DNA from: a virus
Length of the DNA: 64,000 nt
IMG/VR virus record: IMGVR_UViG_3300045988_115474
Direction: 5' to 3' (one strand)
Shown here: positions 2,305 to 45,746 of the stretch, one piece after another
Layout of the letters: the number at the start of each line of letters is the position of its first letter
Position numbering within the stretch: position 1 is the stretch's first letter
Program-made: the position numbers and the translations under genes
Notes under the pieces: generated by a model
Told to the model about the DNA's origin: nothing
What the model saw: only the letters and a program-made list of their open reading frames with translations
The model's database searches: none

Positions 2305-2333
2305 TTGACAAAATTACAAGTATCCTGTATTAT
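2305..2333 (+). promoter_or_regulatory. sigma-70/SigA-type promoter (TTGACA-17-TATTAT) containing the conserved GTATCCTGTAT element
   Basis: TTGACA 2305-2310, 17-nt spacer, TATTAT 2328-2333; lies in the 190-bp gap upstream of the 2422 gene. Confidence 0.65.
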
Positions 2334-2377
2334 GTAGCTAAGAAGGACGGTCCGTTAGAGGACTTTTATTTTTACCA

Positions 2378-2400
2378 TTAAGCTATATAACACAGGATAC
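2378..2400 (+). promoter_or_regulatory. conserved phage element, B orientation (TAGCTATATAACACAGGATAC), just upstream of an RBS
   Basis: Reverse complement of the element inside the 2305-2333 promoter; the same 21-mer recurs at about 10 intergenic sites. Confidence 0.5.
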
Positions 2401-2421
2401 ACAAGAAAAGGAGAATCAAAC

Positions 2422-2751
2422 ATGAAACGCACAAAATCTATGGTTTATCGTGAGACTTACGAAAGTGAAGATCTCTATATCACTACCATCAATGACGGCG
2501 ATTTGTATCGTCAGATGATTTTCCCATTTATTGACAAGCTGAAAAAGAAGTACAAGGCGGGGAAGTACGACAAAGAAAAAGCAATTGATTATTATTTCCA
2601 GATTGCAACGGAAGAAGCAAAGAGGTATCACAAGAAGTTTGGCAGTGCCGGAATTGAATTCAATCGTGTGTTTGATGTTCAGTGTCGTTTCACTGTAGCT
2701 GCGGACATGGAATTATATTACTTTGAAAATGATGTTTCTCGTGAGGAGTGA
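2422..2751 (+). CDS. hypothetical protein
   Basis: ORF-track ORF; AAAAGGAGAATCAAACATG RBS. Confidence 0.55.
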   Translation: MKRTKSMVYRETYESEDLYITTINDGDLYRQMIFPFIDKLKKKYKAGKYDKEKAIDYYFQIATEEAKRYHKKFGSAGIEFNRVFDVQCRFTVAADMELYYFENDVSREE

Positions 2752-2756
2752 TTTGT

Positions 2757-3008
2757 ATGAGTAAGAGTTTGATGCAGCGTTTGATTGATGCTGGTTATCC
2801 AAAAGAGGATATGGATCACCATAATAGTGATTTGTATGTTTACGTTACACCTTTGACCACAAAAATTATTTCTGAATGGTGTAATGAAAACAAATACACA
2901 ATGGATTGGCACTGCCCTAAATTCGTGGATCAGGTTACAGGAAGCGTGATGTATGACTGCGCTTTTCAATACGAGCCATACTGGTGTGAGATAGCAGGAA
3001 GAGTTTAA
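2757..3008 (+). CDS. hypothetical protein
   Basis: In frame with ORF-track 2748-3008; start refined to ATG 2757 after GTGAGGAGTG. Confidence 0.5.
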   Translation: MSKSLMQRLIDAGYPKEDMDHHNSDLYVYVTPLTTKIISEWCNENKYTMDWHCPKFVDQVTGSVMYDCAFQYEPYWCEIAGRV

Positions 3009-3034
3009 GACACGCCGATACATCAAAATTTTTG

Positions 3035-3060
3035 CTACATAACTACATAATATAGGATAC
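3035..3060 (+). promoter_or_regulatory. degenerate copy of the conserved element (CTACATAACTACATAATATAGGATAC) upstream of the 3077 gene
   Basis: Shares CTACATAAT..AGGATAC with the B-orientation copies; followed by AAAAGGAGAGAGTGATATG. Confidence 0.35.
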
Positions 3061-3076
3061 AAAAGGAGAGAGTGAT

Positions 3077-3811
3077 ATGAAAAAGGTCGTTAGTCCGTGT
3101 TTCTGCAAGGTCTACACCAGAAGCGGCAATGAAGCGACTGCGCGGGCATTCTGCGAAATCTGCTTTGAGGAGGGCAAACTCAGTATCCATGGCGTGATCG
3201 GCCCTCTGCGCAGCGGTAACTGCCGTGGCGGTGCTGGTCAGTGTGTTGATGCAATCCGTGAAGGCCGCCCCTGCGATGAATGGACTCAGGAAATGCTCGA
3301 CAAGTTCTGCTCCATCTGGGACGAGTGGCATTTGAACGATATGCGTCCGTACTGCAAGCACCAAAAGGAGCTTGGCTGGGATAAGCTGGCCGTCACTCCT
3401 GTCACTCTGTACCACTATCGGCTGAACAGCAAAACCCTCCGGCGGAAGAAATCCATTAAGAAAAGCTCGTGGAAGATGCTCTGCGATGGCATGACCGCAA
3501 CTCTTAGCGATGACCAGATCGAAGTTGCCAAACTGCCGTACAGTATCACGCTTCCGCATGAAATCTCCGGCGATGCGGCTCTGTACTATGAGCCGCAGAA
3601 ATCGCTCTATCCCGGAATGACCGGCGCGACCGAAACGAAGACCCTCGGCTGGCTATACCCCGATGAGCACCCCGATGGCATCCTCGGTAAGCCTTGCCCG
3701 GTCTGCGGCTACCAGTATGGCCACGCATGGCAGACCGAAGAAGTTCCGCAGGAAGTGATCGACTGGCTGTTTGCACTGCCTGACACACCTGTCAAGCCTG
3801 CGTGGGTGTGA
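3077..3811 (+). CDS. hypothetical Cys-rich protein with GC content clearly above its neighbours
   Basis: ORF-track ORF; strong RBS; N-terminus CFCKVYTRSGNEATARAFCEICFEEGK...CRGGAGQCVDAIREGRPCDEW; by-eye GC about 55% versus about 40% locally. Confidence 0.6.
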   Translation: MKKVVSPCFCKVYTRSGNEATARAFCEICFEEGKLSIHGVIGPLRSGNCRGGAGQCVDAIREGRPCDEWTQEMLDKFCSIWDEWHLNDMRPYCKHQKELGWDKLAVTPVTLYHYRLNSKTLRRKKSIKKSSWKMLCDGMTATLSDDQIEVAKLPYSITLPHEISGDAALYYEPQKSLYPGMTGATETKTLGWLYPDEHPDGILGKPCPVCGYQYGHAWQTEEVPQEVIDWLFALPDTPVKPAWV

Positions 3812-3845
3812 TTATAAGTTGTTGTTGTTGTAATGAGGTGAAAAG

Positions 3846-4085
3846 ATGATTATTGATTCAATTCTTGATCGCCGGAATGGCTATCCTTACAACGCTCACG
3901 AATTTTACAACGATATCAGAGATTATGAGCGTCTAGGTGTTGGTACGCACGGCGAAGATATTTCTATCGCGATGGACTACGGTGATAACCGTGATGTGCA
4001 GCGTGCGCTGTGTCAGTACATCCAGCGCAATGGATACCCGGCAGATATTGAGGACTACATAAGAAGTCAAGTCTGGGTGGTATAA
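3846..4085 (+). CDS. hypothetical protein
   Basis: ORF-track ORF; GAGGTGAAAAGATG RBS. Confidence 0.5.
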   Translation: MIIDSILDRRNGYPYNAHEFYNDIRDYERLGVGTHGEDISIAMDYGDNRDVQRALCQYIQRNGYPADIEDYIRSQVWVV

Positions 4086-4175
4086 GCAGCAGATGCTAGG
4101 TGATTAGCGGTACTAGGGCAGACATAACCGCTACCAGAATGCGAAAGCATAAAAATATAAAAAGGAGCGATTGAT

Positions 4176-4391: not shown

Positions 4392-4403
4392 ATATTAAAA
4401 GGA

Positions 4404-4703: not shown

Positions 4704-4730
4704 AATCATGCTTTTATAGGAGATGAAAAT

Positions 4731-5033: not shown

Positions 5034-5069
5034 TAAAACAGATATTTTACAATGATTGAGGTGACAAAT

Positions 5070-5303: not shown

Positions 5304-5317
5304 TTGAGGTGATAAAA

Positions 5318-5626: not shown

Positions 5627-5682
5627 GGTGATAAAAATGGAATCTATGGTTACTTATAGCGTTTGTGGATGGTTAGATAAAC

Positions 5683-6586: not shown

Positions 6587-6590
6587 TAAA

Positions 6591-11871: not shown

Positions 11872-13176
11872 ATGACTACTAACAATTCTATGACCGTAAT
11901 AACATCTAAGCCTTTTGGTGCACTGAATGTGGATGTGTACGAGGATAATAAGCACCAGTATTACATGACCCGTGAACAGATTGGGCGAGCACTGGAATGT
12001 AAAGAACCTCGGAAGTACATTGCGAAGATTCATGAGCGTAATGCAGACCGTCTTGACCCGTTGAGCTCGGTCGTCAATTTGACGACTGAGGTCGGAAATT
12101 ATACGCAAGAACGTCAAACATATATGTACAGTTTGCGTGGCGTGATGGAAATCTGCCGCCTTTCTCGTCAGCCGAAAGCAGATGCGTTTATGGATTTCTG
12201 CTGGGACATCATGGAATCCTTGATGCGTGGTGACACCGTTCTAGCTACGCCTCAGATGGATGCTGCACTGAGTAAAGAGTTCATTGATGTTAGACTTCAC
12301 GCCTTGTTTGATAGTGTGAAGAACCTTCAGAGTGAACTTGATTCCACTCGCAAGGAGCTCGGTGACCAGATTGAGGAAGCGCGTGCTACCAGTAATGAGG
12401 CACTGAATGTGATTAGTAGCGTATCTCAGTGCGTCCATCAAATCAAGGACAAGCAGATGGATAACGCGATTCGTGCTAAGAGCTACACTCCTCGCAATGT
12501 GTTTAAGGATGAAATGAGTGACTGGCGTAAAGATTTGTATAGCAAGATTGGTGTGATTGCAAATACCAAAGGTTACACGAATAAAGAAACGCTTCACAAG
12601 ATTTATGAATATTTAAATCGTAATTATGGTTTCGTTTTGGAAGATGCTCGTGCAAAGTATATTAAGAGAACGAATCGTAGTGGGAAAATCTCTACGATTG
12701 ACATTATTGAAGATGATACTACTTGGAAATCAGTTATGGGTTCTGTCGTTGCAGATATGTATGCAGCATCTATTGAGCGTCTGCACCAGAATCAGAATGA
12801 GCTTCGTCCTGCTTTGAAGGCCATTGAAACAATTCCTGAAGTAAATGCGAATGATGCTCCCGTGGTTGAGGTGGAAGCCAAGGAAGTTGTTAATGAGAAG
12901 CCTAAGAAGCAGAGTGAGACAGCATTAAAACTGGTTCCAGTTGTTGAACCTCTGGCAAAGAAAATTGGAGACAATACAATTCATTATCATAAGACTTACC
13001 GTATGATTTATGACCAGATTGGTTATACAAAGATGGAAAGTATGTTGAAGGCATACAAACGTGCTCATGGCTGTATGCCTAAACCGAAAACTAAGGTTTT
13101 CCTGGAAAGTGATAATGCTATGCGAATGTTTAAAAAGGCTGTGAAGCAGCTGATGAAAGAGCAGGAGAAGAAGTAA
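11872..13176 (+). CDS. phage antirepressor-like protein (N-terminal Bro-N / ORF6N-type domain)
   Basis: The N-terminal 120 aa (FGALNVDVYEDNKHQYYMTREQIGRALECKEPRKYIAKIHERNADRLD...YSLRGVMEICRLSRQPKADAFMDFCWDIMESL) follow the Bro-N pattern; AAAGGAGTAAAACAAAATG RBS. Confidence 0.55.
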   Translation: MTTNNSMTVITSKPFGALNVDVYEDNKHQYYMTREQIGRALECKEPRKYIAKIHERNADRLDPLSSVVNLTTEVGNYTQERQTYMYSLRGVMEICRLSRQPKADAFMDFCWDIMESLMRGDTVLATPQMDAALSKEFIDVRLHALFDSVKNLQSELDSTRKELGDQIEEARATSNEALNVISSVSQCVHQIKDKQMDNAIRAKSYTPRNVFKDEMSDWRKDLYSKIGVIANTKGYTNKETLHKIYEYLNRNYGFVLEDARAKYIKRTNRSGKISTIDIIEDDTTWKSVMGSVVADMYAASIERLHQNQNELRPALKAIETIPEVNANDAPVVEVEAKEVVNEKPKKQSETALKLVPVVEPLAKKIGDNTIHYHKTYRMIYDQIGYTKMESMLKAYKRAHGCMPKPKTKVFLESDNAMRMFKKAVKQLMKEQEKK

Positions 13177-13797
13177 ATGTATGTGATATCAAATGGTCAT
13201 AACTACATTATGAAACGAAAGGGAGGTCGAATCTGTGCTACCTGTGATATCAATCTGGCATTGAAGTTTGAATCTAAGGGATTGGCAATTTGTGAAATCA
13301 ACAAACTTCCAGCCGGGTATAAGAACGGGCACTACGCACCGAAGTCTATGGACGAAGCCACCGTTGCAGGCAAGAGTCCGAATATAGCAGCTCCGGCTGA
13401 TAAGCCGAATACATACGCATTTCAGATGGAAGATTCCGAATGGCTTGCAAAACTTAAAAAGGATTTGGTTATTACGGATAGGACTATGTGCAATCTGAAT
13501 GAAATGTATTCAAAAGTGTATGGTGACCTGACTGCTGCAGGCGACGAGATTGATGATCTGGAACACGCTATTGAGTTCAAGACTGTAAACGCAGCGCAAG
13601 GTTATCAGCTTATGGCAGAACTTAAAAGGGCTCGCCGGAAGCGTAGGGAAGCTAAGGACGCAAAGTTTTTGCTTGAAATCATTATGAATGAAGAAGATAA
13701 GGGCTGGGTATATGGTAGGTTGGAAACTGCTATTGAACAACTTGGCAATCGTAAGTTTACTCCGAAGATTCGTAACGATTTGTTTGAAAAGAACTGA
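13177..13797 (+). CDS. hypothetical protein
   Basis: ORF-track ORF; its ATG overlaps the upstream stop (TAAATG). Confidence 0.5.
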   Translation: MYVISNGHNYIMKRKGGRICATCDINLALKFESKGLAICEINKLPAGYKNGHYAPKSMDEATVAGKSPNIAAPADKPNTYAFQMEDSEWLAKLKKDLVITDRTMCNLNEMYSKVYGDLTAAGDEIDDLEHAIEFKTVNAAQGYQLMAELKRARRKRREAKDAKFLLEIIMNEEDKGWVYGRLETAIEQLGNRKFTPKIRNDLFEKN

Positions 13798-13807
13798 GGT
13801 ACATATT

Positions 13808-14056
13808 ATGAGAATTTATGTTTTACATGACTGTTATGAAGAAACGGAATTCTATGCAGAGGCAAATGTAATTGAGGTTTCTTCTGACGAAAAGAAGCTA
13901 TATGAATTGATGAAGCTGGCTTATATGGAATGCAAAGAGAGCCATCCAGATGCAAGTGAAGAGTCCTATATTGATAGTTTTAGCGCTCTGGTAACAGAAG
14001 AGAGTGAAGGCTATTATTACAAGCATCAGTGGATGATTGATGAATTTGAGGTATAA
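13808..14056 (+). CDS. hypothetical acidic protein
   Basis: In frame with ORF-track 13688-14056; ATG 13808 after TGAGGTACATATT. Confidence 0.45.
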   Translation: MRIYVLHDCYEETEFYAEANVIEVSSDEKKLYELMKLAYMECKESHPDASEESYIDSFSALVTEESEGYYYKHQWMIDEFEV

Positions 14057-14059
14057 GGT

Positions 14060-14284
14060 ATGATGGTGTATGGAGATATAACGTGTAATCGCTGTGGTAT
14101 TACATGGTATGGACCAAAATGTGGCAGACTTTATTGTGATAAATGTCGTAAAATTATTAGAAACGAGGCATCTATTAGGTGTAAAAATAAAAAGAAGCAT
14201 AAGCCAACATTTGTTGAGATCACAAGATTAGCTGATGCAGAAGGATTGTCATATGGGAAATATTGTTTGAAATACGGAATCTAA
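14060..14284 (+). CDS. hypothetical zinc-ribbon protein
   Basis: CNRCG...CGRLYCDKC pairs of CxxC; ORF-track ORF. Confidence 0.45.
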   Translation: MMVYGDITCNRCGITWYGPKCGRLYCDKCRKIIRNEASIRCKNKKKHKPTFVEITRLADAEGLSYGKYCLKYGI

Positions 14285-14299: not shown

Positions 14300-15178
14300 A
14301 TGGGAGCATTAGCACAGGAAGAGTATGAATCGAATTTTATAAGTATTGACGAATATTTAGATGAAGATGTTAATCAAGAAACAACTCAATATTCTAAAGG
14401 AAAAAATTACAACATCACTCGATATTCTGTGGCACGAAATGGTGAAGTTGAACCGATTCGTGACGTAAAAGATATTCAGGCTATTTCTGAATATTTCTAT
14501 AATAAAAAGAAGTATAGAGATTGGTGCTTGTTTAATCTTGGTATTGCCACAGGATTTCGTGCGAGTGACCTTCTTCGATTTAGAGTTGAAGATGTATCGC
14601 ACCTGGTTGATGGAAAACTTGTTGTTAATGAAACAGTCAAGGTTCGCTTTAAGGAGAAAAAGACAGGAAAATATCGCGATGTTGTAATTGGGCAGAACAC
14701 AATGCAGATTATAGCTGAATATATTCGGCTAACGAGGCCGTCGTATCATTCGTGGCTTTTCCCATCTCAGAAAGGAAGTAGCAAAAATTCATTAAGAACG
14801 AATGGGGGTATTTCTTCTTGGAAAGTTGGAGGGGGAAAATCAAATGCAGTGAAAGTTGTAAAATATGAAGCTGATCCAAAGAAGAAAGGTGACCCGATTG
14901 ATGTTGATACGTTTGGACAGATTATGAGAAAAGCTCAAAAAGACTTAGGGCTTTCTTATAAACTTGGGACGCATAGTTGTCGAAAGACTTTTGGTTATCA
15001 ATTCATGATGAATCATAAAGATGACCAGATGGCACTTGCGTGGTTGCAACATAGCCTGAATCACAGTAATCAGGCTATTACGCTTCACTACATTGGATTA
15101 AATGCAGACGTTGATAGAGAATATTATTCTAACATCGACTATGGCGTTGATTGTCATTGTTCAATTGTAGCAATGTGA
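14300..15178 (+). CDS. tyrosine site-specific recombinase (integrase / XerC-D family)
   Basis: Catalytic signature in canonical order and spacing: box I R (GIATGFRASDLLRFR), HxxR (GTHSCRKTFGYQ), a second H (WLQHSLNHSN), and Y (AITLHYIG) about 33 aa after HxxR. AAAAGGAGATATAGTATATG RBS. Confidence 0.7.
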   Translation: MGALAQEEYESNFISIDEYLDEDVNQETTQYSKGKNYNITRYSVARNGEVEPIRDVKDIQAISEYFYNKKKYRDWCLFNLGIATGFRASDLLRFRVEDVSHLVDGKLVVNETVKVRFKEKKTGKYRDVVIGQNTMQIIAEYIRLTRPSYHSWLFPSQKGSSKNSLRTNGGISSWKVGGGKSNAVKVVKYEADPKKKGDPIDVDTFGQIMRKAQKDLGLSYKLGTHSCRKTFGYQFMMNHKDDQMALAWLQHSLNHSNQAITLHYIGLNADVDREYYSNIDYGVDCHCSIVAM

Positions 15179-20888: not shown

Positions 20889-20916
20889 TTGACTAAAACA
20901 AAATGGTGTGTATAAT
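20889..20916 (+). promoter_or_regulatory. sigma-70-type promoter (TTGACT-16-TATAAT)
   Basis: TTGACT 20889-20894 and TATAAT 20911-20916 in the gap upstream of ATG 20959. Confidence 0.5.
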
Positions 20917-21304: not shown

Positions 21305-21333
21305 TTGACTTCTGTGATGGTATCCTGTATAAT
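21305..21333 (+). promoter_or_regulatory. consensus promoter TTGACT-17-TATAAT containing the conserved GTATCCTGTATAATGTAGCTA element
   Basis: TTGACT 21305-21310, TATAAT 21328-21333; directly upstream of the MazF-like gene. Confidence 0.65.
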
Positions 21334-21376
21334 GTAGCTATGGAACGGAGCTACACCATCATAGAGGAGAAAGACT

Positions 21377-21796
21377 ATGGATAACAATATTGACCCGAAG
21401 GTCGGAGAGGTTTGGTTGGTTGATCTATCCAATGCGACAGGTCATCAGCAGCGCGGTATTCGACCGTTTGTTGTGACAAGCAACAATAAGCGTAACCTCT
21501 TCAGCCCAACAATCAAGGGGAATCCGTTATCTTCAAGAATATACAAGCGTTCTCCGGTTCATGTTCTACTCTCAAAGGAAGACTGTGATTTCCTAGAGGT
21601 TGACAGTATTGTTCTTTGTGAAGAGACTGATACCCTTAATAAAGGACAGTTCATCAAGAGACTTGGTGTCTTGTCGGAGCGTCAAATGAATATGATCGCA
21701 ATGGCAAGATGCAAGGATGAACCGTTTTTGCTCGCAGCATTCCTGAGCGGCGTACAACATACTATGGATTTTCAGAATTTTGCCGCATTTGCTTGA
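21377..21796 (+). CDS. MazF/PemK/Kid-family endoribonuclease-like toxin with a ~25-aa C-terminal extension
   Basis: KVGEVWLVDLSNATGHQQRGIRPFVVTSNNKRN...SIVLCEETDTLNKGQFIKRLGVLSERQMNMIAMA follows the MazF/PemK pattern (GxxxxVDxxPxxGxExxGxRPxVV...TxDKxRL). Strong RBS AGAGGAGAAAGACTATG. Confidence 0.65.
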   Translation: MDNNIDPKVGEVWLVDLSNATGHQQRGIRPFVVTSNNKRNLFSPTIKGNPLSSRIYKRSPVHVLLSKEDCDFLEVDSIVLCEETDTLNKGQFIKRLGVLSERQMNMIAMARCKDEPFLLAAFLSGVQHTMDFQNFAAFA

Positions 21797-21849
21797 TTTT
21801 TTATAAGGTTTAATGGTACACTACATATAATAAGAAGGAGTGTGCCACT

Positions 21850-22776
21850 ATGCTTACTGAAGAAAAAATCAAAGCTTTTGCCGAAAAGTATTCTGATAGA
21901 AGCGGTGAGTTTGTTATATCGACACTTAACCATGTCATGGATTACGAGTCCGAGTGTGGGTATAAGTTGTTTGACTTTACAAAAGATGATTTTGTAAAGA
22001 TGTTTGCCAAATACAATTGGGTGAACTCAAGTCGGTCGTTCAGAAATGTAAAGTCAATAATCACTGGCTACATCAAGAGTGAAAACTGTACAAGCATGTA
22101 CGACTTGGCTGAATTCTCAGAGGATGATGTGAGCTCAGACGACATGTACGAGGACAAGTATTTTGCGTCAGTTGATGAGTTTGTTGACTTCTTAGATAAA
22201 TACGAAAAGGCATATCAGATTCGTATGAACGTGATTGCTGCACTGTACTGGATTGGCCTTACTTCTGAAGAGGTTTCTAATCTGACGATTAACGATGTCG
22301 ATTTTGAATCTCGTACCGTTCTGGACAAAACTGATGTTGACGCAAGATTGATGGAGATCATCAAGCAGTGCTATGAAATGGAACAGTATGATGCCCCAAA
22401 CAAGAAGGGTTATAGAACATTTTGTGTCATGAATGGTGATTACATCCTTCGCAAAACAGAGGATAGAACTGATGCAGACAGTGATTCAAGAATATCTATA
22501 AACACAATTCACAGCTATTTTGTGCGGTTGAATGACATCCTCGAAAAAAGATCCAATTCAAAGACTTTGGATCGAAGACATTTGGTCAGAAATGGTGAGT
22601 ACGTGAAGGTCTACGACTACTGTAAGAACAATCCAGAATTTAATCTTGCAGAACTTAGTTTCGGAAATGGTAAAGACCCCCTTGCGAACATTATCGGAAG
22701 AAAGTGTAGCAAAGTAGCCTATGTTAGTTTCCGGCAAGGATACAAAGGTTGGGTTGAATACTTCCACAAAAATTAA
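21850..22776 (+). CDS. hypothetical protein (308 aa)
   Basis: ORF-track ORF; TAAGAAGGAGTGTGCCACTATG RBS; followed by a strong terminator. Confidence 0.55.
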   Translation: MLTEEKIKAFAEKYSDRSGEFVISTLNHVMDYESECGYKLFDFTKDDFVKMFAKYNWVNSSRSFRNVKSIITGYIKSENCTSMYDLAEFSEDDVSSDDMYEDKYFASVDEFVDFLDKYEKAYQIRMNVIAALYWIGLTSEEVSNLTINDVDFESRTVLDKTDVDARLMEIIKQCYEMEQYDAPNKKGYRTFCVMNGDYILRKTEDRTDADSDSRISINTIHSYFVRLNDILEKRSNSKTLDRRHLVRNGEYVKVYDYCKNNPEFNLAELSFGNGKDPLANIIGRKCSKVAYVSFRQGYKGWVEYFHKN

Positions 22777-22781
22777 AGATA

Positions 22782-22803
22782 GGGGCTTCGGCCCCTTAAT
22801 TTT
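22782..22803 (+). terminator. rho-independent terminator
   Basis: GGGGC-TTCG-GCCCC hairpin followed by TTAATTTT. Confidence 0.75.
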
Positions 22804-22810
22804 AACACGT

Positions 22811-22831
22811 TAGCTATATAACACAGGATAC
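22811..22831 (+). promoter_or_regulatory. conserved element, B orientation (TAGCTATATAACACAGGATAC)
   Basis: Exact 21-mer shared with 2380-2400; 33 nt upstream of ATG 22864. Confidence 0.5.
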
Positions 22832-23914: not shown

Positions 23915-26125
23915 ATGAGAACTTTGCTTCTTTTCCGTGGAGCACCCGGATGCGGGAAATCCACCTATATTAAAGAGCATGATCTGGAAAAGTATACGCT
24001 TAGTGCCGATACGATTCGCCTTATGTGTCAGGGTGGTCAGGAAACCCCAGCTGGCACAATGGAAATCTCTCCTCAGAACGATGATGTTGTCTGGGATATG
24101 CTCTTTAAACTGTTGGAGGTTCGGATGTCTCACGGTGAATTTACCGTGATTGATGCAACGAATTCCAAGACGGTCGAAATGAATCGTTATAAGAATCTTG
24201 CAAAACAGTATCGTTATCGGATGTATGTTATTAACATGACGGACCTTCCGATCGAGGAATGCAAACGAAGAAACGCTCAGAGAGAATGGCTGAAGCGAGT
24301 TCCTGAAGCGGCTATTGATAAGATGTACGCTCGGTTTGCTACTCAAAAAGTTCCTTCTGGCGTGACAGTTCTTCCTTCTACTACGGATGTGATGTCCGAT
24401 TTGAACTACTGTCCGAATGACTTCAACCAGTGGAAGAAGATTCATGTCATCGGTGATGTTCATGGCTGTTATACTTGTTTAAGTGAATACCTTGGTGAGA
24501 TGAAGGACGACGAACTTTATATCTTCGTTGGTGATTATCTCGATCGTGGCATTGAAAACGTTGAGGTATTCAAGTTCTTGTGTGATGTTGTAAATAACAA
24601 CCGCAAGAATGTGATCCTTTTGGAAGGGAATCACGAGCGTTGGCTGAACAAGTGGGGGCATGATGAACCGGTTCAGAGTGAAGAGTTTGCAAACTACACT
24701 CGTCCGCAGCTCTTTAAAGCCGGTATTGACAAGAACACTGCTCGTAAGATCTATTCCAGAGTTGGCCAATGTGCCTACTTTGAGTATGATGGGAAGCAGT
24801 ATTTCGTGAGCCACGGTGGTTTGAGTTATCTGCCTTATTTTCTTCCTTTTGTATCTGCTGACCAGATGATTAAAGGTGTGGGTCGCTATCCTGATATGCT
24901 AACCGTGGCTGAGTCTTGGGAAAAATCGATGCCGGATAGCTACATTCAGATCTTCGGTCATCGAAATGTGCAGGATGTTCCTATTGATATGGGGCATCGG
25001 TGTTACAACCTCGAAGGAAAAATCGAGTTTGGTGGATATCTCCGTTGCGTGGAACTTGAACACGGTCAGTCAATCAAATGTGTAGAAACAAAGAACGATG
25101 TGTTCCGAAAAGAGGAGCCAAAGACTGAAACTGCCGTTGAAATGAAAACTGAGTTCGATAACGCAGAACTTGTCAGTAAGATGCGTCAAAGCAAATATGT
25201 GTTTGAGAAGCGATTCGGAGATATTTCTTCTTTCAACTTCTCTCGTGAAGCATTTTATAAGAAGCACTGGGATGAGGTTTCTACCAAAGCAAGGGGATTG
25301 TTCATTAACACAAAGACGAATAAGATTGTAGCTCGAAGCTATGATAAGTTCTTTGCGGTCGATGAGCGGAATGAAACGAGAATTGGAAACCTACAGAACA
25401 CTTTGAAGTTCCCGGTGACTGCATATCTGAAGGAAAACGGATTTCTTGGCATTGTCTCATATGATGCAGAACAGGATGGTCTGTTCATTGCAAGTAAATC
25501 CACTCCTGAAGGGCCTTTTGCAGATATGTTCCGAAAGATTCTCATGGATACGACTTCTGATGAAGACCGTAAGAATCTGAAGGAAGTTGCAAAAGAGAAT
25601 GGTTCCATCATTTTTGAGGTGATTGATCCTATAAATGATGCTCATATCATCGAATACAAGAAACCGCACATTGTTTTGCTGGATATTGTTGCGAATGATA
25701 TGAACTTCAGTGTGATGGATTACGATGATCTGAAGCGTGTTGCTGAAAAGTGTCATTTGCAGATTAAGGAGAAGGTTAAGATCTTTGAGTGCTGGAGTGA
25801 ATTCTATCCTTGGTATGAAGAAGTCATGAATGAGAATTATCTGTACCATGGCATCGAGCATATTGAAGGCTTTGTTTTGAGAGATAACAACAATTTTATG
25901 TTTAAGCTGAAGCTTCCTTATTATAAGCACTGGAAGTTCTTGCGTGGTGTTATGCAGAGCGTTCAGAAGCGTGGCTATTATGAAAATACCGCAAAGTTGT
26001 TTACTGCTGAGGATAACCTGTTCTATGGTTGGATGCGTGAGCAACGAGAGAAAGATCAGGAATCTTTCTGCAAGAAGGGTATTATTCAGTTACGGAATGA
26101 ATTCTATGAGAATCGGCACGAATAA
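23915..26125 (+). CDS. polynucleotide kinase / phosphatase / ligase (bacterial Pnkp-like RNA end-healing and sealing enzyme)
   Basis: N-terminus: P-loop kinase FRGAPGCGKST. Middle: calcineurin-like phosphoesterase motifs HVIGDVHGC, GDYLDRG and GNHER. C-terminus: nucleotidyltransferase/ligase-like motifs KENGFLG (motif I, K-x-N-G), EGFVLRD (IV) and FKLKLP (V). RBS AAAAGGGGAGAAAACAATG. Confidence 0.75.
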   Translation: MRTLLLFRGAPGCGKSTYIKEHDLEKYTLSADTIRLMCQGGQETPAGTMEISPQNDDVVWDMLFKLLEVRMSHGEFTVIDATNSKTVEMNRYKNLAKQYRYRMYVINMTDLPIEECKRRNAQREWLKRVPEAAIDKMYARFATQKVPSGVTVLPSTTDVMSDLNYCPNDFNQWKKIHVIGDVHGCYTCLSEYLGEMKDDELYIFVGDYLDRGIENVEVFKFLCDVVNNNRKNVILLEGNHERWLNKWGHDEPVQSEEFANYTRPQLFKAGIDKNTARKIYSRVGQCAYFEYDGKQYFVSHGGLSYLPYFLPFVSADQMIKGVGRYPDMLTVAESWEKSMPDSYIQIFGHRNVQDVPIDMGHRCYNLEGKIEFGGYLRCVELEHGQSIKCVETKNDVFRKEEPKTETAVEMKTEFDNAELVSKMRQSKYVFEKRFGDISSFNFSREAFYKKHWDEVSTKARGLFINTKTNKIVARSYDKFFAVDERNETRIGNLQNTLKFPVTAYLKENGFLGIVSYDAEQDGLFIASKSTPEGPFADMFRKILMDTTSDEDRKNLKEVAKENGSIIFEVIDPINDAHIIEYKKPHIVLLDIVANDMNFSVMDYDDLKRVAEKCHLQIKEKVKIFECWSEFYPWYEEVMNENYLYHGIEHIEGFVLRDNNNFMFKLKLPYYKHWKFLRGVMQSVQKRGYYENTAKLFTAEDNLFYGWMREQREKDQESFCKKGIIQLRNEFYENRHE

Positions 26126-26190
26126 CTAAGATATTTTCTTCCTCCGAAATGCCCTGCGCGGGGCTGACAGCCGGGAAAGACCGGCGATAT

Positions 26191-26266
26191 GGCCCTATGG
26201 CGGAATTAGGCATACGCAACAAGCTCAAACCTTGTAAAATTCTCAGTTCAAATCTGAGTAGGGCTA
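26191..26266 (+). tRNA. tRNA with anticodon CAA in a class I (short variable arm) fold; isotype unclear (Leu-like anticodon without a long arm)
   Basis: Manual fold: acceptor GGCCCTA/TAGGGCT (G1-U72), D arm GCGG..ACGC, anticodon stem ACAAG/CTTGT, loop CTCAAAC, T arm CTCAG-TTCAAAT-CTGAG, A73 and encoded CCA. Confidence 0.5.
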
Positions 26267-26348
26267 CCAACCCATTTGCAGATGGGTAAGTGCTAGAATA
26301 TTGGCAAATTGGAAAGACGGTTGACTGCTGGACAGACAGCTTTGATAT

Positions 26349-26431
26349 GCTACCGTGGTGGAATGGCAGACACCGGAGACTTAAAATCTCCTGTCGGCAA
26401 CGACGTGCCCGTTCAAGTCGGGTCGGTAGCA
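26349..26431 (+). tRNA. tRNA-Leu (anticodon TAA), class II
   Basis: Acceptor GCTACCG/CGGTAGC, anticodon stem GGAGA/TCTCC with loop CTTAAAA, 15-nt variable arm with GTCG/CGAC stem, T arm GCCCG-TTCAAGT-CGGGT, A73. Confidence 0.75.
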
Positions 26432-26438
26432 CTAATAT

Positions 26439-26511
26439 CCGGGTGTAGCTCAGTTGGAAGAGCGCCTGCTTTGGGAGCAGGAGGCCGCAGGATCATGACC
26501 TGTCACTCGGA
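26439..26511 (+). tRNA. tRNA-Pro (anticodon TGG)
   Basis: C1-G72 acceptor (CCGGGTG/CACTCGG), D arm GCTC-AGTTGGAA-GAGC, anticodon stem CCTGC/GCAGG with loop TTTGGGA, T arm GCAGG-ATCATGA-CCTGT (A54/U58 variant), A73 and CCA. Confidence 0.65.
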
Positions 26512-26602
26512 CCAGCCCGAAAGGGTATGTAGAATTTTTCATTCACATTATTCCCAGCCCTCTGGAAACAGAGCAGTGTGGCATAGCAAGCTGGGTAGAT
26601 TA

Positions 26603-26674
26603 CGAGGATTAGCCAAGCGGATAAGGCAGTGGAATTTGACTCCACGACCGCAGGTTCGATTCCTGCACACTCGA
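26603..26674 (+). tRNA. tRNA-Gln-like (anticodon TTG) with two acceptor-stem mismatches
   Basis: D arm GCCAAGCGGATAAGGC, anticodon stem GTGGA/TCCAC with loop ATTTGAC, T arm GCAGG-TTCGATT-CCTGC. Acceptor CGAGGAT/ACACTCG pairs at only 5 of 7 positions. Confidence 0.5.
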
Positions 26675-26681
26675 TTTATAT

Positions 26682-26763
26682 GCGGGTATGGTGTAACTGG
26701 CAGCCACGCGGATTTTAGGTGTCCGTGCCGAAAGGCGTGAGGGATCGTGCCCCTCTACCCGTA
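26682..26763 (+). tRNA. tRNA-Leu (anticodon TAG), class II
   Basis: Acceptor GCGGGTA/TACCCGT, anticodon stem CGGAT/GTCCG with loop TTTAGGT, 13-nt variable arm (GCC-GAAA-GGC), T arm GAGGG-ATCGTGC-CCCTC, A73 and CCA. Confidence 0.7.
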
Positions 26764-26869
26764 CCACGGTCATAGAATGGTTGCGTACCGTTTGTTGATC
26801 TCCTTTGGCCACTATTATTCCCAGCTCGCTCGTAAGAGTGCAGTAGTGCTTTGTAAACTGGGTGATTGT

Positions 26870-26941
26870 GCAGTTATTGTGTAGTTGGTAAGCACGCTTG
26901 CTGATGAAGTAAGAGGACGAGTTCAAAACTCATTGACTGCA
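26870..26941 (+). tRNA. tRNA-like element (possible degenerate tRNA or pseudogene)
   Basis: Acceptor GCAGTTA/TGACTGC pairs fully and the D arm is good (GTGT..GCAC), but the anticodon loop TGATGAA lacks U33, the T stem has a mismatch and the variable region is 3 nt. Confidence 0.3.
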
Positions 26942-27144
26942 AAATATGAAATCAGTTGTTCTAGCTCGTTCGTGGATTGGCCGTACATTGGCGACCGGAA
27001 AGACGTCATACCGGTAAAGGACGTCAAGCCAGACAAGAAGAGAAATAAGGTGTAAGCCGACTAGCTATCGGATAAATACTCTTCGGTTCGCCAGAAAACT
27101 AGAATGTAAAACGAATGGTTGGCTGTTTCTGATTTCATTTATAT

Positions 27145-27217
27145 GCGACTGTAGTTCAATTGGCAGAGCGTCAGATTTCCAATCTGAATGTTGCGGGATC
27201 GTGCCCCGTCAGTCGCT
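27145..27217 (+). tRNA. tRNA-Gly (anticodon TCC)
   Basis: Perfect acceptor GCGACTG/CAGTCGC, D arm GTTC..GAGC, anticodon stem TCAGA/TCTGA with loop TTTCCAA, T arm GCGGG-ATCGTGC-CCCGT, U73 and CCA. Confidence 0.75.
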
Positions 27218-27351
27218 CCACACGCAGCCCCTTACGCTGCACCGGTTGCTCAGAGCCGAAAGAAACCTATATGTTACGACATGGTTGCCAAGAGTGATCA
27301 TATTGGAACGCGACGTAGCTTGGATAGTGAGAATTAAATTCTGAGGTATAC

Positions 27352-27420
27352 TGCTGGATAGCTTAATGGTAAAAGCGCTCGGAAACGCCGAGAGATAAGG
27401 TTCAATTCCTTCACTGGCAT
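27352..27420 (+). tRNA. degenerate tRNA-like element (anticodon loop of only 5 nt)
   Basis: Acceptor TGCTGGA/ACTGGCA (6 of 7 pairs including G-U), D arm GCTT-AATGGTAA-AAGC, T arm TAAGG-TTCAATT-CCTTC; the anticodon arm CTCGG-AAACG-CCGAG is too short to be functional. Confidence 0.25.
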
Positions 27421-27447
27421 CACGCCGATGAAAGTCGGCGTTTGCAT

Positions 27448-27521
27448 GGGATAGTAGCTCAGTTGGTCAGAGCTGGCGGCTCATAACCGCTTGGTCGCGA
27501 GTTCAAATCTTGCCTGTCCCA
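27448..27521 (+). tRNA. tRNA-Met (anticodon CAT), elongator or Ile2-like (G1-C72 paired, so not an initiator)
   Basis: Acceptor GGGATAG/CTGTCCC, D arm GCTC-AGTTGGTCA-GAGC, anticodon stem GGCGG/CCGCT with loop CTCATAA, T arm GCGAG-TTCAAAT-CTTGC, A73 and CCA. Confidence 0.8.
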
Positions 27522-27627
27522 CCAGCCCGATAGGGCATACATAAAATCTGCTAGAACTTTTGTTTTATAAGCGAATTTATAATATGACGTTAATACGTCT
27601 ATTATTTTTCGCTCATTTTTAAAGTTT

Positions 27628-27648
27628 TAGCTATATAATACAGGATAC
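27628..27648 (+). promoter_or_regulatory. conserved element, B orientation (TAGCTATATAATACAGGATAC), immediately upstream of the RBS of the methyltransferase operon
   Basis: 20 of 21 identity with the other copies; followed by AAAAGGAGG. Confidence 0.5.
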
Positions 27649-27723
27649 TAAAAGGAGGAATGTGTAATCTTACGAGTTTTAATTGCCTGTGAAGAATCAC
27701 AGGAAGTTTGTAAAGCATTTCGA

Positions 27724-28368
27724 TTGCTTGGTCATGAAGCGTATTCTTGCGATATTCAACCTCCGTCCGGTGGTCACCCAGAGTGGCATATTTTGGGTAA
27801 CGCACTGGCAGCTCTACAGGGTGGGCAGATAGTCACAATGGACGGCACACAACACTATGTTAAGCAGTGGGATCTATTGATTGCACATCCTCCGTGTACA
27901 TATTTATCAAACGCTGGCGCACGATGGTTATGGGCTGGACACAAATTGAATCAAGAACGGTATCAACGAGGATTGGAAGCTAAGGAATTTTTTATGGCGT
28001 TTTATAACGCACCGATCAAACACATTTGTGTTGAAAATCCAATTCCGAGTGCTGTTTATGAAATGCCAAAACCATCGCAGATGATTCAGCCATATGAATT
28101 TTATGGTAAGGACCACCCATGGACAAAGAAGACCTGTTTATGGCTGAAAGGTCTTCCTAATCTGGTTCCGGTTGAAGCGGTTGAACCGAAGGGTCCGTAT
28201 TGTCCTTGTGGAACTTCGGCCAATAAAGGCAATGTAAGAAATCGTGGCGCAGCCAAACGTGGTGAGGATGCGAAAAATAGAGCCAAGACTTTTCATGGCG
28301 TTGCTCGTGCCTTTGCAGAACAGTTCTCGGCTTACATCGAAAGTGAGGGCGAAAATGCCAGAAAATAA
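27724..28368 (+). CDS. C5-cytosine-methyltransferase-like protein (PC and ENV motifs); N-terminal boundary unresolved, with the reading frame open upstream to 27652 but no canonical start
   Basis: Motif IV-like LIAHPPCTYLSNAG and motif VI-like ICVENPIP. The upstream in-frame RVLIACEESQEVCKAF resembles a motif I strand but lacks FxGxGG. The nearest ATG (27660) is in another frame with 1-nt SD spacing. Confidence 0.45.
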   Translation: MLGHEAYSCDIQPPSGGHPEWHILGNALAALQGGQIVTMDGTQHYVKQWDLLIAHPPCTYLSNAGARWLWAGHKLNQERYQRGLEAKEFFMAFYNAPIKHICVENPIPSAVYEMPKPSQMIQPYEFYGKDHPWTKKTCLWLKGLPNLVPVEAVEPKGPYCPCGTSANKGNVRNRGAAKRGEDAKNRAKTFHGVARAFAEQFSAYIESEGENARK

Positions 28369-30877: not shown

Positions 30878-30892
30878 AATTTTTTAGTCTTA

Positions 30893-30911
30893 GATGTGTA
30901 ATACAGGATAC
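30893..30911 (+). promoter_or_regulatory. partial copy of the conserved element (GTGTAATACAGGATAC)
   Basis: Shares TAATACAGGATAC with the B-orientation copies; 37 nt upstream of ATG 30948. Confidence 0.35.
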
Positions 30912-43010: not shown

Positions 43011-43240
43011 TGAATGGTGTTTTATATACTATTGACGGAGAGGTTATTTGTGAGCTTCCTATGTTTAAAATTGATTGGTACAAAGATAAAACTGTAATTA
43101 AGATACATTGTACAAATTGTTGCGTCGTTAGAAAAGTTCAGAAGTGGAAGTTTGACCGCGCAGAACAATGCGAGCGTACCACAAAATGGTTTTATTGCAG
43201 AGTGTGCGGAGGACTGACAGAATTTAGATTAGGTGCATAA
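43010..43240 (+). CDS. hypothetical zinc-ribbon protein
   Basis: CTNCC...CRVCGG; TAATG overlap with dnaE. Confidence 0.45.
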   Translation: MNGVLYTIDGEVICELPMFKIDWYKDKTVIKIHCTNCCVVRKVQKWKFDRAEQCERTTKWFYCRVCGGLTEFRLGA

Positions 43241-43255
43241 TAAGAGGGTTATAAA

Positions 43256-45586
43256 GTGGCAGATAAGAAATTTAATGAAAATATGATCCGTTGTTACATC
43301 AGGATAAAACGAGTCTTTTATCCGAAAGATGGGAAGGAGGTGGAGCCCGGCGGCTTCGCCACTTTCTCTGCCGAGGTGGTAAAAGTCAAGCAGGGGAATC
43401 CTGTTATGAGTCGATACAGTGACCTCCGGCTAAAAGGCAACGTTCCTAGCCTTGATATGAATAAAACTTATTCGTTCTGTGGTGAATATGTTCACCATGA
43501 AAAGTTTGGTGATCAGTATAAAATCGTCTATATGAACGAGTTCCAAGAGATTACTGACCCAGAAGAACAGAAAAGCTTTCTCCATTTTATCTTGACAGAA
43601 CATCAGTTCGAGATGCTTTACGAAGCATTTGATAATCCGTATGAGATCATCAAGAACGGTGATATCAAGTCTCTTTGCACTGTTAGTGGAATTACGGAAG
43701 GTCGAGCCCAGAAAATTATCGATGCCTTTGAAAATAACATTGATAATAGCGAAGCATACACGAAGCTGATTGAGTATGGCTTAACTCCTAGTGCTATCGG
43801 AAAACTTGTTCATCAATATCACGGCGCAGACACTCTGGTGAGAAAGATTGAAGAGAACCCTTATGTTTTGATTGACGATGTATATGGTATCGGTTGGAAG
43901 AAGGCTGACGCTCTTGCTTTGAATATGGGATTGAAGCCAAACTCTCAGTTCCGAATTGAAGCTTACGTCATGCATTTTCTTGCTGACCGTGCCGAAGAAG
44001 GCAATTCTATCATCCCGGCAAACCAGACAATCAATAGCTGTATCAAGGAACTTGAATTGGATGAGGGAGACCAAGAGGTCATCAAGAGAGCACTTTTTCA
44101 TCTGCATGATGTACGTGAAACACTTTGGTGGAGCGATGACCGTCAGGAATTTGCTTTAACTAGAGTGTGGAATCTGGAAGATAGTATTGCGAAGGAAATC
44201 AAGCGTCTGGCGGATGCTCCTGTTGAGCCGATTGGTCGAAATATAGATGCAGCAATCAATGAGGCCGAAAATGCGCTTGGCATCGAGTATACCGAAGAGC
44301 AGAGAGATGCCATTAAAAAGGTATGCTCTAGTAACGTCTGTATCCTAACAGGCTACGGAGGAACCGGTAAAAGTACCGTTGTCGCTGGTGTCCTAAAGGT
44401 TCTTCGTGGTAAGTCGTTTGCCCAGACTGCACTCTCTGGTCGTGCTGCTGCTCGTATGCAGGAGATTACTGGTCAGGACGGCAAGACAATTCACCGCCTT
44501 CTTGGTTACGACATTGAGAATGGTGATTTTGCCCATAACAAAAACAATCCTTTAGAAGAGGATATCATCATTCTGGATGAAACCTCTATGGTTGGTGCTA
44601 AATTATTTTACGATTTGATTCAAGCAATCGAAACTGGTAAGCGATTTATCATGATTGGTGATGACGGCCAGCTTGAGAGTATTGGTATGTGCAACATCTT
44701 CAAGGATATGCTCGCCTCCAAAGTTGTTCCGGTTGCTCGCTTGACGAAGATTCACCGTCAGGCTGCTAAGTCAGCGATTGTCACAGAGAGCATCAAGGTT
44801 CGTAATGCCACGCAATTGGTTCCTTACGGTTGGGCTGGTAATGAGATTCGTGGTGAGCTGCGTGATTTGGAGCTAGATATCTACAAGGATGCAGGCGAGT
44901 CGTTTAACCACATCATCAATCAATACCGTACCTTATATAATAAGGTAGGGAATGACAGCGCAAAGATTCAGATTGTACTTCCGCAGAAGCTCCGTGGTAG
45001 TATTTGCACCTACGAGGTGAATAACGCTATTCAGGAAATTGTGAATCCGAGTCGTGGTCAGACCGAAGCGAAGATCTCCATCTATGGTGATGGCAAGGAT
45101 AGAGTGTACACTCTGCGCGAGGGCGATCAGGTCATTATCAACAAGAATAACTATGAACTTCATACATACAATCTCAAGACAAAGAAAAAAGAAGAGAAGT
45201 GTCCGGTGTTTAACGGCAACCGTGGCATCATTCGAAAGATCGAAAATAGTTTTATTCTGGTTGACTTTGACCAATGGGGCACAATCTTCATTCCTCATTA
45301 TTTTGGTGGGAACAACATCTGGGCAACACTTGAACTCGCTTATGCTTTGAGTTGTCATAAACTGCAAGGTAGCGAAGCTCCGTATGTGATTGTCGGCATG
45401 GATAACTCTGCATACTTGATGTTGACGAGAGAATGGCTCTATACGGCCATTACTCGTGCCAAGAAGTATTGTGTGATTTGCGCTGAAACTCATGCACTTG
45501 ACCGAGCGGTAAAGACTTCGAGAGTTCCATACAAGCGGACGTTCCTGAAGGAATTTTTACGGAAAGAATTTTCAGAAAAGCATTGA
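43256..45586 (+). CDS. RecD-like (RecD2/SF1B) ATP-dependent DNA helicase
   Basis: Walker A ILTGYGGTGKST, motif Ia KTIHRLLGY, Walker B IIILDETSMV, motif III IMIGDDGQLESIG, C-terminal SH3-like region; GTG start after TAAGAGGGTTATAAA. Confidence 0.8.
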   Translation: MADKKFNENMIRCYIRIKRVFYPKDGKEVEPGGFATFSAEVVKVKQGNPVMSRYSDLRLKGNVPSLDMNKTYSFCGEYVHHEKFGDQYKIVYMNEFQEITDPEEQKSFLHFILTEHQFEMLYEAFDNPYEIIKNGDIKSLCTVSGITEGRAQKIIDAFENNIDNSEAYTKLIEYGLTPSAIGKLVHQYHGADTLVRKIEENPYVLIDDVYGIGWKKADALALNMGLKPNSQFRIEAYVMHFLADRAEEGNSIIPANQTINSCIKELELDEGDQEVIKRALFHLHDVRETLWWSDDRQEFALTRVWNLEDSIAKEIKRLADAPVEPIGRNIDAAINEAENALGIEYTEEQRDAIKKVCSSNVCILTGYGGTGKSTVVAGVLKVLRGKSFAQTALSGRAAARMQEITGQDGKTIHRLLGYDIENGDFAHNKNNPLEEDIIILDETSMVGAKLFYDLIQAIETGKRFIMIGDDGQLESIGMCNIFKDMLASKVVPVARLTKIHRQAAKSAIVTESIKVRNATQLVPYGWAGNEIRGELRDLELDIYKDAGESFNHIINQYRTLYNKVGNDSAKIQIVLPQKLRGSICTYEVNNAIQEIVNPSRGQTEAKISIYGDGKDRVYTLREGDQVIINKNNYELHTYNLKTKKKEEKCPVFNGNRGIIRKIENSFILVDFDQWGTIFIPHYFGGNNIWATLELAYALSCHKLQGSEAPYVIVGMDNSAYLMLTREWLYTAITRAKKYCVICAETHALDRAVKTSRVPYKRTFLKEFLRKEFSEKH

Positions 45587-45611
45587 CAATTATATTGGTA
45601 TCCTGTATAAT
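45583..45611 (+). promoter_or_regulatory. consensus promoter TTGACA-17-TATAAT with embedded GTATCCTGTATAATATAGCTA element
   Basis: TTGACA 45583-45588 and TATAAT 45606-45611; overlaps the last codons of the RecD-like gene. Confidence 0.65.
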
Positions 45612-45657
45612 ATAGCTATAAAAAGTCTCCATCTCGGAGGCTTAAAATTCTCTCTTT

Positions 45658-45677
45658 AACTACATAATACAGGATAC
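45658..45677 (+). promoter_or_regulatory. conserved element, B orientation (AACTACATAATACAGGATAC)
   Basis: Second of three element copies within 180 bp. Confidence 0.45.
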
Positions 45678-45680
45678 GAG

Positions 45681-45717
45681 AAAGAAATGGCTTGCTCGTA
45701 ATGGCAAGCCTTTCTTT
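45681..45717 (+). terminator. rho-independent (possibly bidirectional) terminator
   Basis: AAAGAAA-T-GGCTTGC [TCGTAATG] GCAAGCC-TTTCTTT: a ~14-bp stem flanked by an A-tract and a T-tract. Confidence 0.7.
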
Positions 45718-45726
45718 ATTCATTAT

Positions 45727-45746
45727 AACTATATAACACAGGATGC
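45727..45746 (+). promoter_or_regulatory. conserved element, B orientation variant (AACTATATAACACAGGATGC), directly upstream of the ligase RBS
   Basis: Followed by GCAAGGAGGCTTTATG. Confidence 0.45.

Follow-up and report, generated by a model that had tools for sequence, protein, structure and literature searches.

The window analyzed here, a 64,000-nucleotide stretch of viral DNA (IMG/VR record IMGVR_UViG_3300045988_115474), contains multiple copies of an asymmetric 22-bp element, WTAGCTAYATAAYACAGGATAC. We found 13 copies in the same genome, 10 in the window and 3 in the 8 kb to its left, dispersed over 72 kb. The left flank was taken from contig L126, which belongs to the same genome (12227/12227 positions identical in the overlap) and adds 8133 bp leftward, the window position being the L126 position minus 8133. 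Copies are written with the core reading ACAGGATAC; those on the plus strand are named by the start of a 21-bp form, and the 22-bp form begins 1 nt earlier. The element was assigned a length of 22 bp because the base 5' of TAGCTA was always A or T. Seven window copies lie on the plus strand (2380-2400, 3040-3060, 22811-22831, 27628-27648, 30891-30911, 45657-45677, and 45726-45746) and three on the minus strand (2320-2340, 21320-21340, and 45598-45618). The flank contributes two minus-strand copies, at L126 913-933 and 3856-3876, and one plus-strand copy at L126 3915-3935.

The GTATCCTGTATAATGTAGCTA 21-mer with up to 3 mismatches was matched 7 times in the window, as opposed to 0.00 expected matches, and the 9-mer core 8 times as opposed to 0.44; the full set of 10 window copies was obtained by allowing one core mismatch and reading the contexts. 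An earlier note on this DNA, made from its letters, had listed about 10 intergenic copies and proposed that they be counted with a position weight matrix. All of its copies exist, within 1 to 2 nt of the positions it gave. The matrix, built from the sites, scored 13 sites at 27 to 37 bits, all other sequence at no more than 8 bits, and shuffled sequence at about 15 bits at most. Every one of these sites, including the 10 in the window, lies in a gap between genes, even though the window is about 85% coding.

The box consists of two unlike invariant ends and has no dyad symmetry. Both ends are constant over the 13 sites, which have unrelated flanks, and over more than 200 sites in relatives, whereas the central hexamer is variable. 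Over 238 distinct contexts, this hexamer read TATAAT, TATAAC, CATAAT, TACAAT, TACATT, TGAAAC, or CGTGAC between fixed ends.

The window genes that have ribosome-binding sites are all on the plus strand. The three minus-strand copies, which are thus reversed, fall on three of the four best plus-strand sigma-A-type promoters, at 45583, 21305, and 2305, and cover about -20 to +1 of each. The earlier note described three perfect TTGACA-17-TATAAT promoters. This is accurate for the promoter at 45583-45611 (12/12 matches), which carries the copy at 45598-45618 (34.2 bits); the other two match the consensus at 11 of 12 positions, that at 21305-21333 reading TTGACT-17-TATAAT (copy at 21320-21340, 34.6 bits) and that at 2305-2333 reading TTGACA-17-TATTAT (copy at 2320-2340, 36.7 bits). 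They are not canonical extended -10 promoters, because the TG directly adjoins the -10 hexamer. In the reversed copies, a single base change (A to T at position 10) gives TATAAT on the gene strand, and T occupies position 12 in every case, as if the box and a host -10 hexamer had both been accommodated. The relatives available at orthologous sites are too close (flanks 85 to 94% identical) for much inference, except that promoter-embedded copies show free variation in the 8 to 9 nt separating the box from the -35, both of which are constant. The fourth promoter, a near-consensus TTGACT-16-TATAAT at 20889-20916, upstream of gene 20959 and of the toxin/repressor operon described below, has no box and may be the one that keeps the repressor expressed in the lysogen.

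The remaining copies all point in the direction of the local genes (10/10), including the leftward genes of L126. The copy at 2379-2400 (31.9 bits) ends 6 nt 5' of the ribosome-binding site of gene 2422. The intergenic copy at 3039-3060, with the core variant ATAGGATAC (30.8 bits), touches the ribosome-binding site of gene 3077, and the full-consensus copy at 27627-27648 (36.3 bits) lies 2 nt 5' of that of a methyltransferase gene. Between an intrinsic terminator-like hairpin at 22781-22796 on the plus strand (GGGGCTTCGGCCCC then TTAATTTT) and gene 22864 is the copy at 22810-22831 (35.3 bits). A copy with a degenerate 5' half (TAGATG) at 30890-30911 (27.3 bits) precedes the Sak4-like/YorG-like gene that opens the replication block. 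The copy at 45656-45677 (34.7 bits) faces a terminator and no gene: a strong bidirectional terminator-like hairpin (45678-45721, plus strand; dG -20.5, z -5.7) separates it from the tandem copy at 45725-45746 (GGATGC variant, 30.4 bits), which lies 3 nt 5' of the ribosome-binding site of the DNA ligase gene 45760. Plus-strand copies end 0 to 25 nt before the ribosome-binding site, rather than 15 to 40 nt upstream of it as initially reported, and that at 45657 is followed by the terminator instead. In L126, the copy at 913-933 lies upstream of a homologue of the phage RNA polymerase YonO, and those at 3856 and 3915 form a divergent pair, 38 bp apart. Between the two is a TTGAAT-17-TGgTATAAT promoter that fires into one of them, the 3856 box covering about +3 to +23.

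Inverted pairs are formed at three places (2320-2400, 45598-45677, and L126 3856-3935) with a fixed spacer of 38 to 40 bp. The distance given previously for the first pair, 45 nt, is actually 39 nt. In two of the spacers, a hairpin occurs just after the start site of the consensus promoter. That at 2349-2364 (plus strand) is short, weak, and followed by a T-run (dG -7.4, z -1.1). That at 45623-45643 (plus strand), in the 38-nt spacer of the second pair, is more stable (dG -11.1, z -4.9), and relatives keep its stem and vary its loop. Since the hairpin comes right after the start, the 2305 and 45583 promoters may make only very short or 5'-hairpin-stabilized transcripts.

The 21305 promoter drives an operon whose first gene (21377-21796) encodes a MazF/PemK-like toxin (PF02452, E value of 1.4e-19). 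It is followed by gene 21850-22776, encoding a protein of 308 amino acids (aa) that is our candidate for the binder of the element, and the operon is closed by the hairpin at 22781. Searched alone, the 308-aa protein gave a weak match to the Pfam domain MrpR_N_CB and another to the Tn1549 integrase, relative to which the first catalytic Arg is changed to Thr (GLT versus GLR). An exhaustive search returned relatives at 20 to 37% identity. MrpR_N_CB was found in 26 of the 37 family members, and most close homologues carry a precomputed MrpR_C_cat domain. A profile of the 37 sequences matched the YopR/MrpR structures 8bj6, 8bjv, and 8a0a over the full length with an E value of 6e-15, as opposed to 1e-3 for the recombinase XerA. 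For the AlphaFold2 model (pLDDT of 90.4), the best Foldseek match was phi3T SroF bound to DNA (9rd5, E value of 2.7e-8, TM of 0.63), followed by YopR, SroF-Sar, and MrpR; true recombinases ranked lower (lambda Int, 5e-4; others worse). The repressor was not found in a search of the GTDB genomes.

The profile alignment places G136-L137-T138 of the protein opposite G136-V137-S138 of MrpR, the first catalytic Arg being replaced, as in MrpR. R243 and K285 occupy the catalytic His positions. All family members have the Tyr (Y298), as well as the Gly mutated in the heat-sensitive SPbeta c2 repressor; the alignment does not place the Lys with certainty. Profile matches and the predicted fold thus identify the product of gene 21850-22776 as a catalytically degenerate protein of the MrpR/YopR/SroF family, with the integrase fold of core-binding and catalytic domains. 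The public SPBc2 yopR sequence (L123 31280-32257) has Glu at position 136, which is the heat-sensitive c2 allele (PMC10516654) and disturbs the alignment near the invariant Gly. We detected no helix-turn-helix or other DNA-binding family in the window or its left flank. In particular, the leftward gene at 1-139 (137 aa in full), suggested previously as a candidate binder, carries no DNA-binding signature, and gene 21850-22776 is the better candidate.

By its gene content and flanks, the window belongs to an SPbeta-like Faecalibacterium prophage of about 135 kb. Exact-protein look-ups placed it inside bacterial contigs of 300 to 430 kb. Just past its right end are FolD, a Tn916-type Xis, and a tyrosine integrase, followed by host genes, one of which matches a Faecalibacterium genome at 100% identity and F. 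prausnitzii at 96%; hence the assignment to a prophage of this genus. Many relatives are present in IMG/VR as contigs of 120 to 140 kb. The order Sak4-like gene, small gene, helicase, primase, RecJ-like gene, and polymerase is that of SPbeta yorG-yorL. In the L126 extension the genes turn leftward, and L126 1-882 (also L021 5577-8360) encodes a 927-aa protein with the Pfam domain RdRP (PF05183), of the family of the SPbeta single-chain RNA polymerase YonO. This gene is preceded by an element copy and followed by genes for a prohead protease and PhoH and by a second tRNA array. The YorG-YorL order and the YonO homologue indicate that the phage is SPbeta-like in plan. No close relative was found among isolated phages, the nearest DNA polymerase III alpha being that of Clostridium phage Amboise (47%). 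The window has a G+C content of about 41%, with a positive GC skew throughout. Faecalibacterium chromosomes have a G+C content of about 56%, which makes the prophage compositionally very unlike its host.

Considering these data together, we think that the 308-aa integrase-fold protein is probably the master repressor of the prophage and the element its operator. Most likely, this is a further example of a repressor-operator mechanism already known from the Bacillus phage SPbeta. In length, asymmetry, and dispersion, the sites are like those that the MrpR/SroF family binds, and consensus promoters in a prophage need a repressor. The earlier proposal that one phage regulator acts on many units through this operator is therefore favored, with an MrpR/YopR/SroF homologue encoded in the window itself, although strong promoters coincide with only 3 of the 13 copies. 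In a temperate phage, the "early promoters" of that proposal amount to promoters that the lysogen has to keep silent.

If the protein behaves like SroF, one monomer would clamp one asymmetric box of about 22 bp, recognizing the two GC-containing ends, TAGCTA and ACAGGATAC, by their sequence and the A/T-rich center largely by its shape. Bound to the three reversed boxes over -20 to +1, the repressor would shut out RNA polymerase; at 21320, where the box lies on the promoter of the MazF-repressor operon, this would amount to autoregulation. The ten co-oriented boxes, located after terminators, downstream of a promoter, or before ribosome-binding sites, would act as a second lock, either as roadblocks, a role that we infer, or by occluding weak starts that lack a -35. 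This lock would stop read-through into lytic genes, including the yonO RNA polymerase gene, the methyltransferases, the replication genes, and the ligase. The 22811 box fits such a function well, because the repressor operon that ends just before it must stay on in the lysogen.

In SPbeta, ChAP-seq peaks of MrpR, which is a monomer, occur at 10 promoter regions bearing the SPBRE (PMC10516654). Four of the peaks have counterparts here: yopM, in the repressor/sro operon, corresponds to the element at 21320; yonP-yonO to the box upstream of the YonO homologue (L126 913-933); yorE, before the replication genes, to the element at 30891; and yorM, after the polymerase gene, to the elements at 45598-45746. 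The SPBRE, as we extracted it from the SPbeta genome, is always co-oriented with genes. Most copies are flanked by TAGACA and TATAAT, which make up a host-type promoter, and at yopM, yopV, and yonX it lies directly 5' of the ribosome-binding site. The two phages share an integrase-fold repressor with lost catalytic residues and a long asymmetric box that recurs about 10 or more times in widely spaced intergenic regions of a prophage of about 135 kb, some copies on sigma-A-type promoters and others just before ribosome-binding sites. They differ in several respects. Whereas the SPbeta boxes all run with transcription, the promoter-embedded boxes here are reversed and have a separate TTGACA -35, and inverted pairs with a fixed 38- to 40-bp spacer are present. 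The SPbeta repressor gene ends a six-gene sro operon, whereas here it directly follows a MazF-like gene. The host is Faecalibacterium rather than Bacillus.

In phi3T, a SroF monomer occupies an asymmetric box of 26 bp, contacting 24 bp and reading the A/T-rich center partly by shape; the repressor has many sites across the genome and is removed by a DNA-mimicking antirepressor (bioRxiv 10.1101/2025.11.27.690993). SroF is the best fold match of the 308-aa protein, and its asymmetric, A/T-centered site is in keeping with a 22-bp box whose ends are fixed and whose A/T center varies. We recognized no Sar antirepressor, LexA box, or arbitrium genes in the present phage, the only search being one with the pattern GAAC-N4-GTTC, which gave 4 matches, all inside genes; no search aimed at Sar or AimR homologues was made.

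Polarity brings to mind the stoperators of the mycobacteriophage L5 repressor gp71, reportedly described by Brown et al. in 1997 as asymmetric sites present in many copies in short intergenic spaces, with an orientation tied to transcription. One class is said to lie on an early promoter and others to block elongation. The element likewise consists of intergenic asymmetric sites and has one orientation to transcription in all ten non-promoter copies. Reportedly, gp71 is a small helix-turn-helix protein with a 13-bp site; no gp71-like helix-turn-helix protein was recognized here and no homology is expected. The MrpR family is not known to block in a polar way.

Conservation of the box was examined in relatives. 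More than 117 stretches in IMG/VR match the pattern CTAYATAAYACAGGATAC, and almost all of them belong to relatives 82 to 92% identical. Conservation among the loci L001 to L117 is biased, because these were fetched by exact motif match; the bias-free groups are the reversed copies at 21320 and 45598, the copies in L125 and L126, and those in L207. In a more distant lineage, L209 (21 kb; repressor 30% identical), the box is absent and there is no clear repeated motif, though two CTAACAATCAT repeats follow the repressor gene. L211, with a 27%-identical repressor, has a related motif, TAGCTGGTAYAATACAG, in two copies at syntenic places, on 4.5 kb only. One, co-oriented, lies inside the TTGACT-17-TATAAT promoter of the MazF-repressor operon, and the other, reversed, after the downstream terminator. 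Longer contigs of the L211 lineage were searched for and not found, and the 12 IMG/VR matches to TAGCTGGTAYAATACAG are single occurrences on contigs without a repressor homologue. A 37%-identical repressor homologue lies on a contig of 1.3 kb.

Several of our observations weigh against the 308-aa protein acting through the element as a simple operator. Its homology to MrpR and SroF is remote, at 13 to 18% identity in the Foldseek alignments and with a pairwise BLAST E value of 0.74. The element is unrelated in sequence to the SPBRE (tAGACAAAtACAAAwAATATGTATA) and shows no similarity to the phi3T box (CAGTAATTTTATTTTTATTCTTAATG); because the boxes of known members also differ from each other, this mismatch rules out identity, not family membership. 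With respect to co-variation, L207, whose repressor is only 72% identical, has the same box. The data from L207, L209, and L211 are compatible with the box and the protein changing together, and none of them amounts to a successful test of co-variation. Next, the 10/10 co-orientation would arise by chance about 1 time in 1000 (an approximate figure, as the copies are not fully independent). A simple operator does not require it, and a directional element such as a promoter would fit also. Finally, between the terminators at 22781, 27586, and 45689 and the genes that follow them, nothing but the element resembles a promoter.

The last two points also support a different explanation, in which host RNA polymerase, together with a phage-encoded activator or sigma-like factor, uses the co-oriented copies as phage-specific promoters that do not depend on a -35 box. 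On the reversed copies, the same factor, possibly the MrpR-like protein acting in both directions, could fire antisense or block the sigma-A promoter and so turn early transcription off. In keeping with this explanation, the copies hold a -10-like hexamer (TATAAT, TATAAC, or CATAAT), and one base change keeps TATAAT facing the genes in both orientations. We nevertheless consider it rather unlikely. The co-oriented copies have no -35 box better than that of shifted controls and no TG extension. About one third have a C at the key last position of the hexamer, and some co-oriented copies in relatives retain both ends around a center that is not -10-like (TGAAAC upstream of yonO; CGTGAC after a terminator in L207). 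Several copies abut the ribosome-binding site directly, and that at 45657 faces only a terminator. At L126 3856, the box follows a good promoter and so is not needed to serve as one. The three reversed copies fall on host-type promoters, and the related motif of the distant lineage follows the opposite orientation rule. No dedicated polymerase, sigma factor, or activator gene was recognized in the window by Pfam or PHROGs. Comparison with the consensus sequences of host alternative sigma factors (sigma-H, B, E/K, and 54) and with known phage polymerase promoters, made by eye only, gave nothing convincing. The missing -35 box and the hexamers of relatives favor reading the co-oriented copies as operators or roadblocks rather than as parts of promoters. 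Likewise, the missing -35 and TG, the C-ended or non-10-like hexamers, the copy facing a terminator, and the copy downstream of a promoter indicate that the ends are conserved for something other than recognition by sigma-A.

Strict co-orientation suggests a polar roadblock, as reported for the L5 stoperators, or some promoter role. A further reading, to which we give little weight, is that the integrase-fold protein would be a two-way switch that in one polarity shuts sigma-A promoters and in the other is needed for -35-less starts or blocks elongation in one direction. If so, the orientation of the box would encode the sign of regulation.

It is decidedly improbable that the element is the operator of another phage regulator, maybe a small DNA-binding protein that went unrecognized. 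Most of the roughly 125 window genes have no annotation, which leaves room for one, and the 308-aa protein is linked to the box by analogy alone. Apart from the lack of any DNA-binding family detectable in the window or its left flank, the location of the MrpR-like gene behind an element-bearing promoter and the suitability of the sites for its family argue for the 308-aa protein as the binder.

Recognition by the phage's own polymerase can be given very little credence. The phage does encode the 927-aa YonO homologue, and the promoter sequence of YonO is still unknown; in SPbeta, YonO has a single start site, upstream of yonK, and transcribes the late operon only (PMC5467207). The copies described here are found in the early/replication region and before yonO itself, and three of them coincide with consensus host promoters.

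Similarly, there is scant reason to think that the element functions at the RNA level, whether to mark a site of processing (perhaps by the phage MazF) or to control translation as an operator at the ribosome-binding site. Co-oriented copies do adjoin ribosome-binding sites, and a MazF-like nuclease is encoded nearby. The three reversed copies, though, lie in untranscribed promoter DNA and would yield the complementary RNA, and no conserved structure includes the element. A search of the non-coding DNA flanking the element against Rfam returned only tRNAs and chance matches.

Least credible is a role as recombination or inversion sites of an active tyrosine recombinase (14300-15178, or the integrase at the prophage end), with the inverted pairs as invertible promoter cassettes: recombinase genes are present and the three pairs have a fixed spacer, but 38 to 40 bp is very short for inversion, seven copies are unpaired, and the cassettes were rejected when the orientation of the spacer relative to the flanks proved identical in 86/86 pairs from related genomes.

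The repressor gene is consistently associated with a toxin gene. A MazF/PemK-like gene lies immediately 5' of the MrpR-like gene in four lineages (window 21377-22776, L207 8679-10084, L209 9506-11008, and L211 2131-3597), the repressors of the other three being only 27 to 72% identical to that of the window; no MazE-like gene was seen. SPbeta YopM acts on the host MazE, and the pairing could accordingly be an addiction or abortive-infection link. Conceivably, though with little likelihood, the repressor is also a partner of the MazF-like toxin, which would tie maintenance of the prophage to addiction.

Three features of the layout are unusual: the reversed promoter-embedded boxes, the inverted pairs with a fixed spacer, and the conserved MazF-repressor gene pair. 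A literature search with the sequence of the element found no paper. If the assignment is correct, a widespread family of prophages of about 135 kb in Faecalibacterium, a key human gut commensal, gains a testable operator sequence and a candidate master repressor, and the known range of both the integrase-fold MrpR/SroF repressors and the YonO-bearing SPbeta-like phages would extend past Bacillus. Knowing the box, one could predict the silenced regulon, design reporters of induction, and curate such prophages in metagenomes. Whether a monomeric, clamp-like repressor works directionally is a question that could be approached through the reversed boxes, the pairs with fixed spacing, and the strict co-orientation.

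Other genes in the window encode DNA polymerase III alpha, RecJ-like, RecD2-like, and Sak4-like proteins, a helicase, a primase, and DNA ligase. Also present are genes for an anaerobic ribonucleotide reductase, thymidylate synthase, dUTPase, an RNA repair kinase/ligase, the MazF-like toxin, and two methyltransferases, as well as eight tRNA genes. Upstream of the methyltransferase gene that follows the 27627 copy, at 27652-27724, the reading frame extends (…ILRVLIACEESQ…) to a strong ribosome-binding site, with no ATG, GTG, or TTG before 27724; an out-of-frame ATG at 27660 starts a 10-codon open reading frame. This arrangement points to a non-canonical start (perhaps ATC at 27667) or a frameshift.

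Beside the divergent element pair of L126, about 2 kb contains no called genes (L126 3600-3855 and 3935-5923). A 389-aa gene of L126 is preceded by a 260-nt leader with a long hairpin, which had no Rfam match above chance. Three ATGCAAA(A/T) direct repeats at 255-290 of the window, in the divergent gap between the leftward 137-aa gene (1-139) and the rightward gene 319, may be a second, local regulatory site. Directly 3' of the MazF-repressor operon, at 23915-27524, a three-domain kinase/phosphatase/RNA ligase (Pnkp-like, 736 aa) is followed by the eight tRNA genes, in what looks like a module for RNA repair and tRNA replacement; a hairpin and T-run lie 3' of the array (27586-27599, plus strand). 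At the position of this tRNA array, L207 has a TnpB/Cas12f1-like gene (12936-14225).

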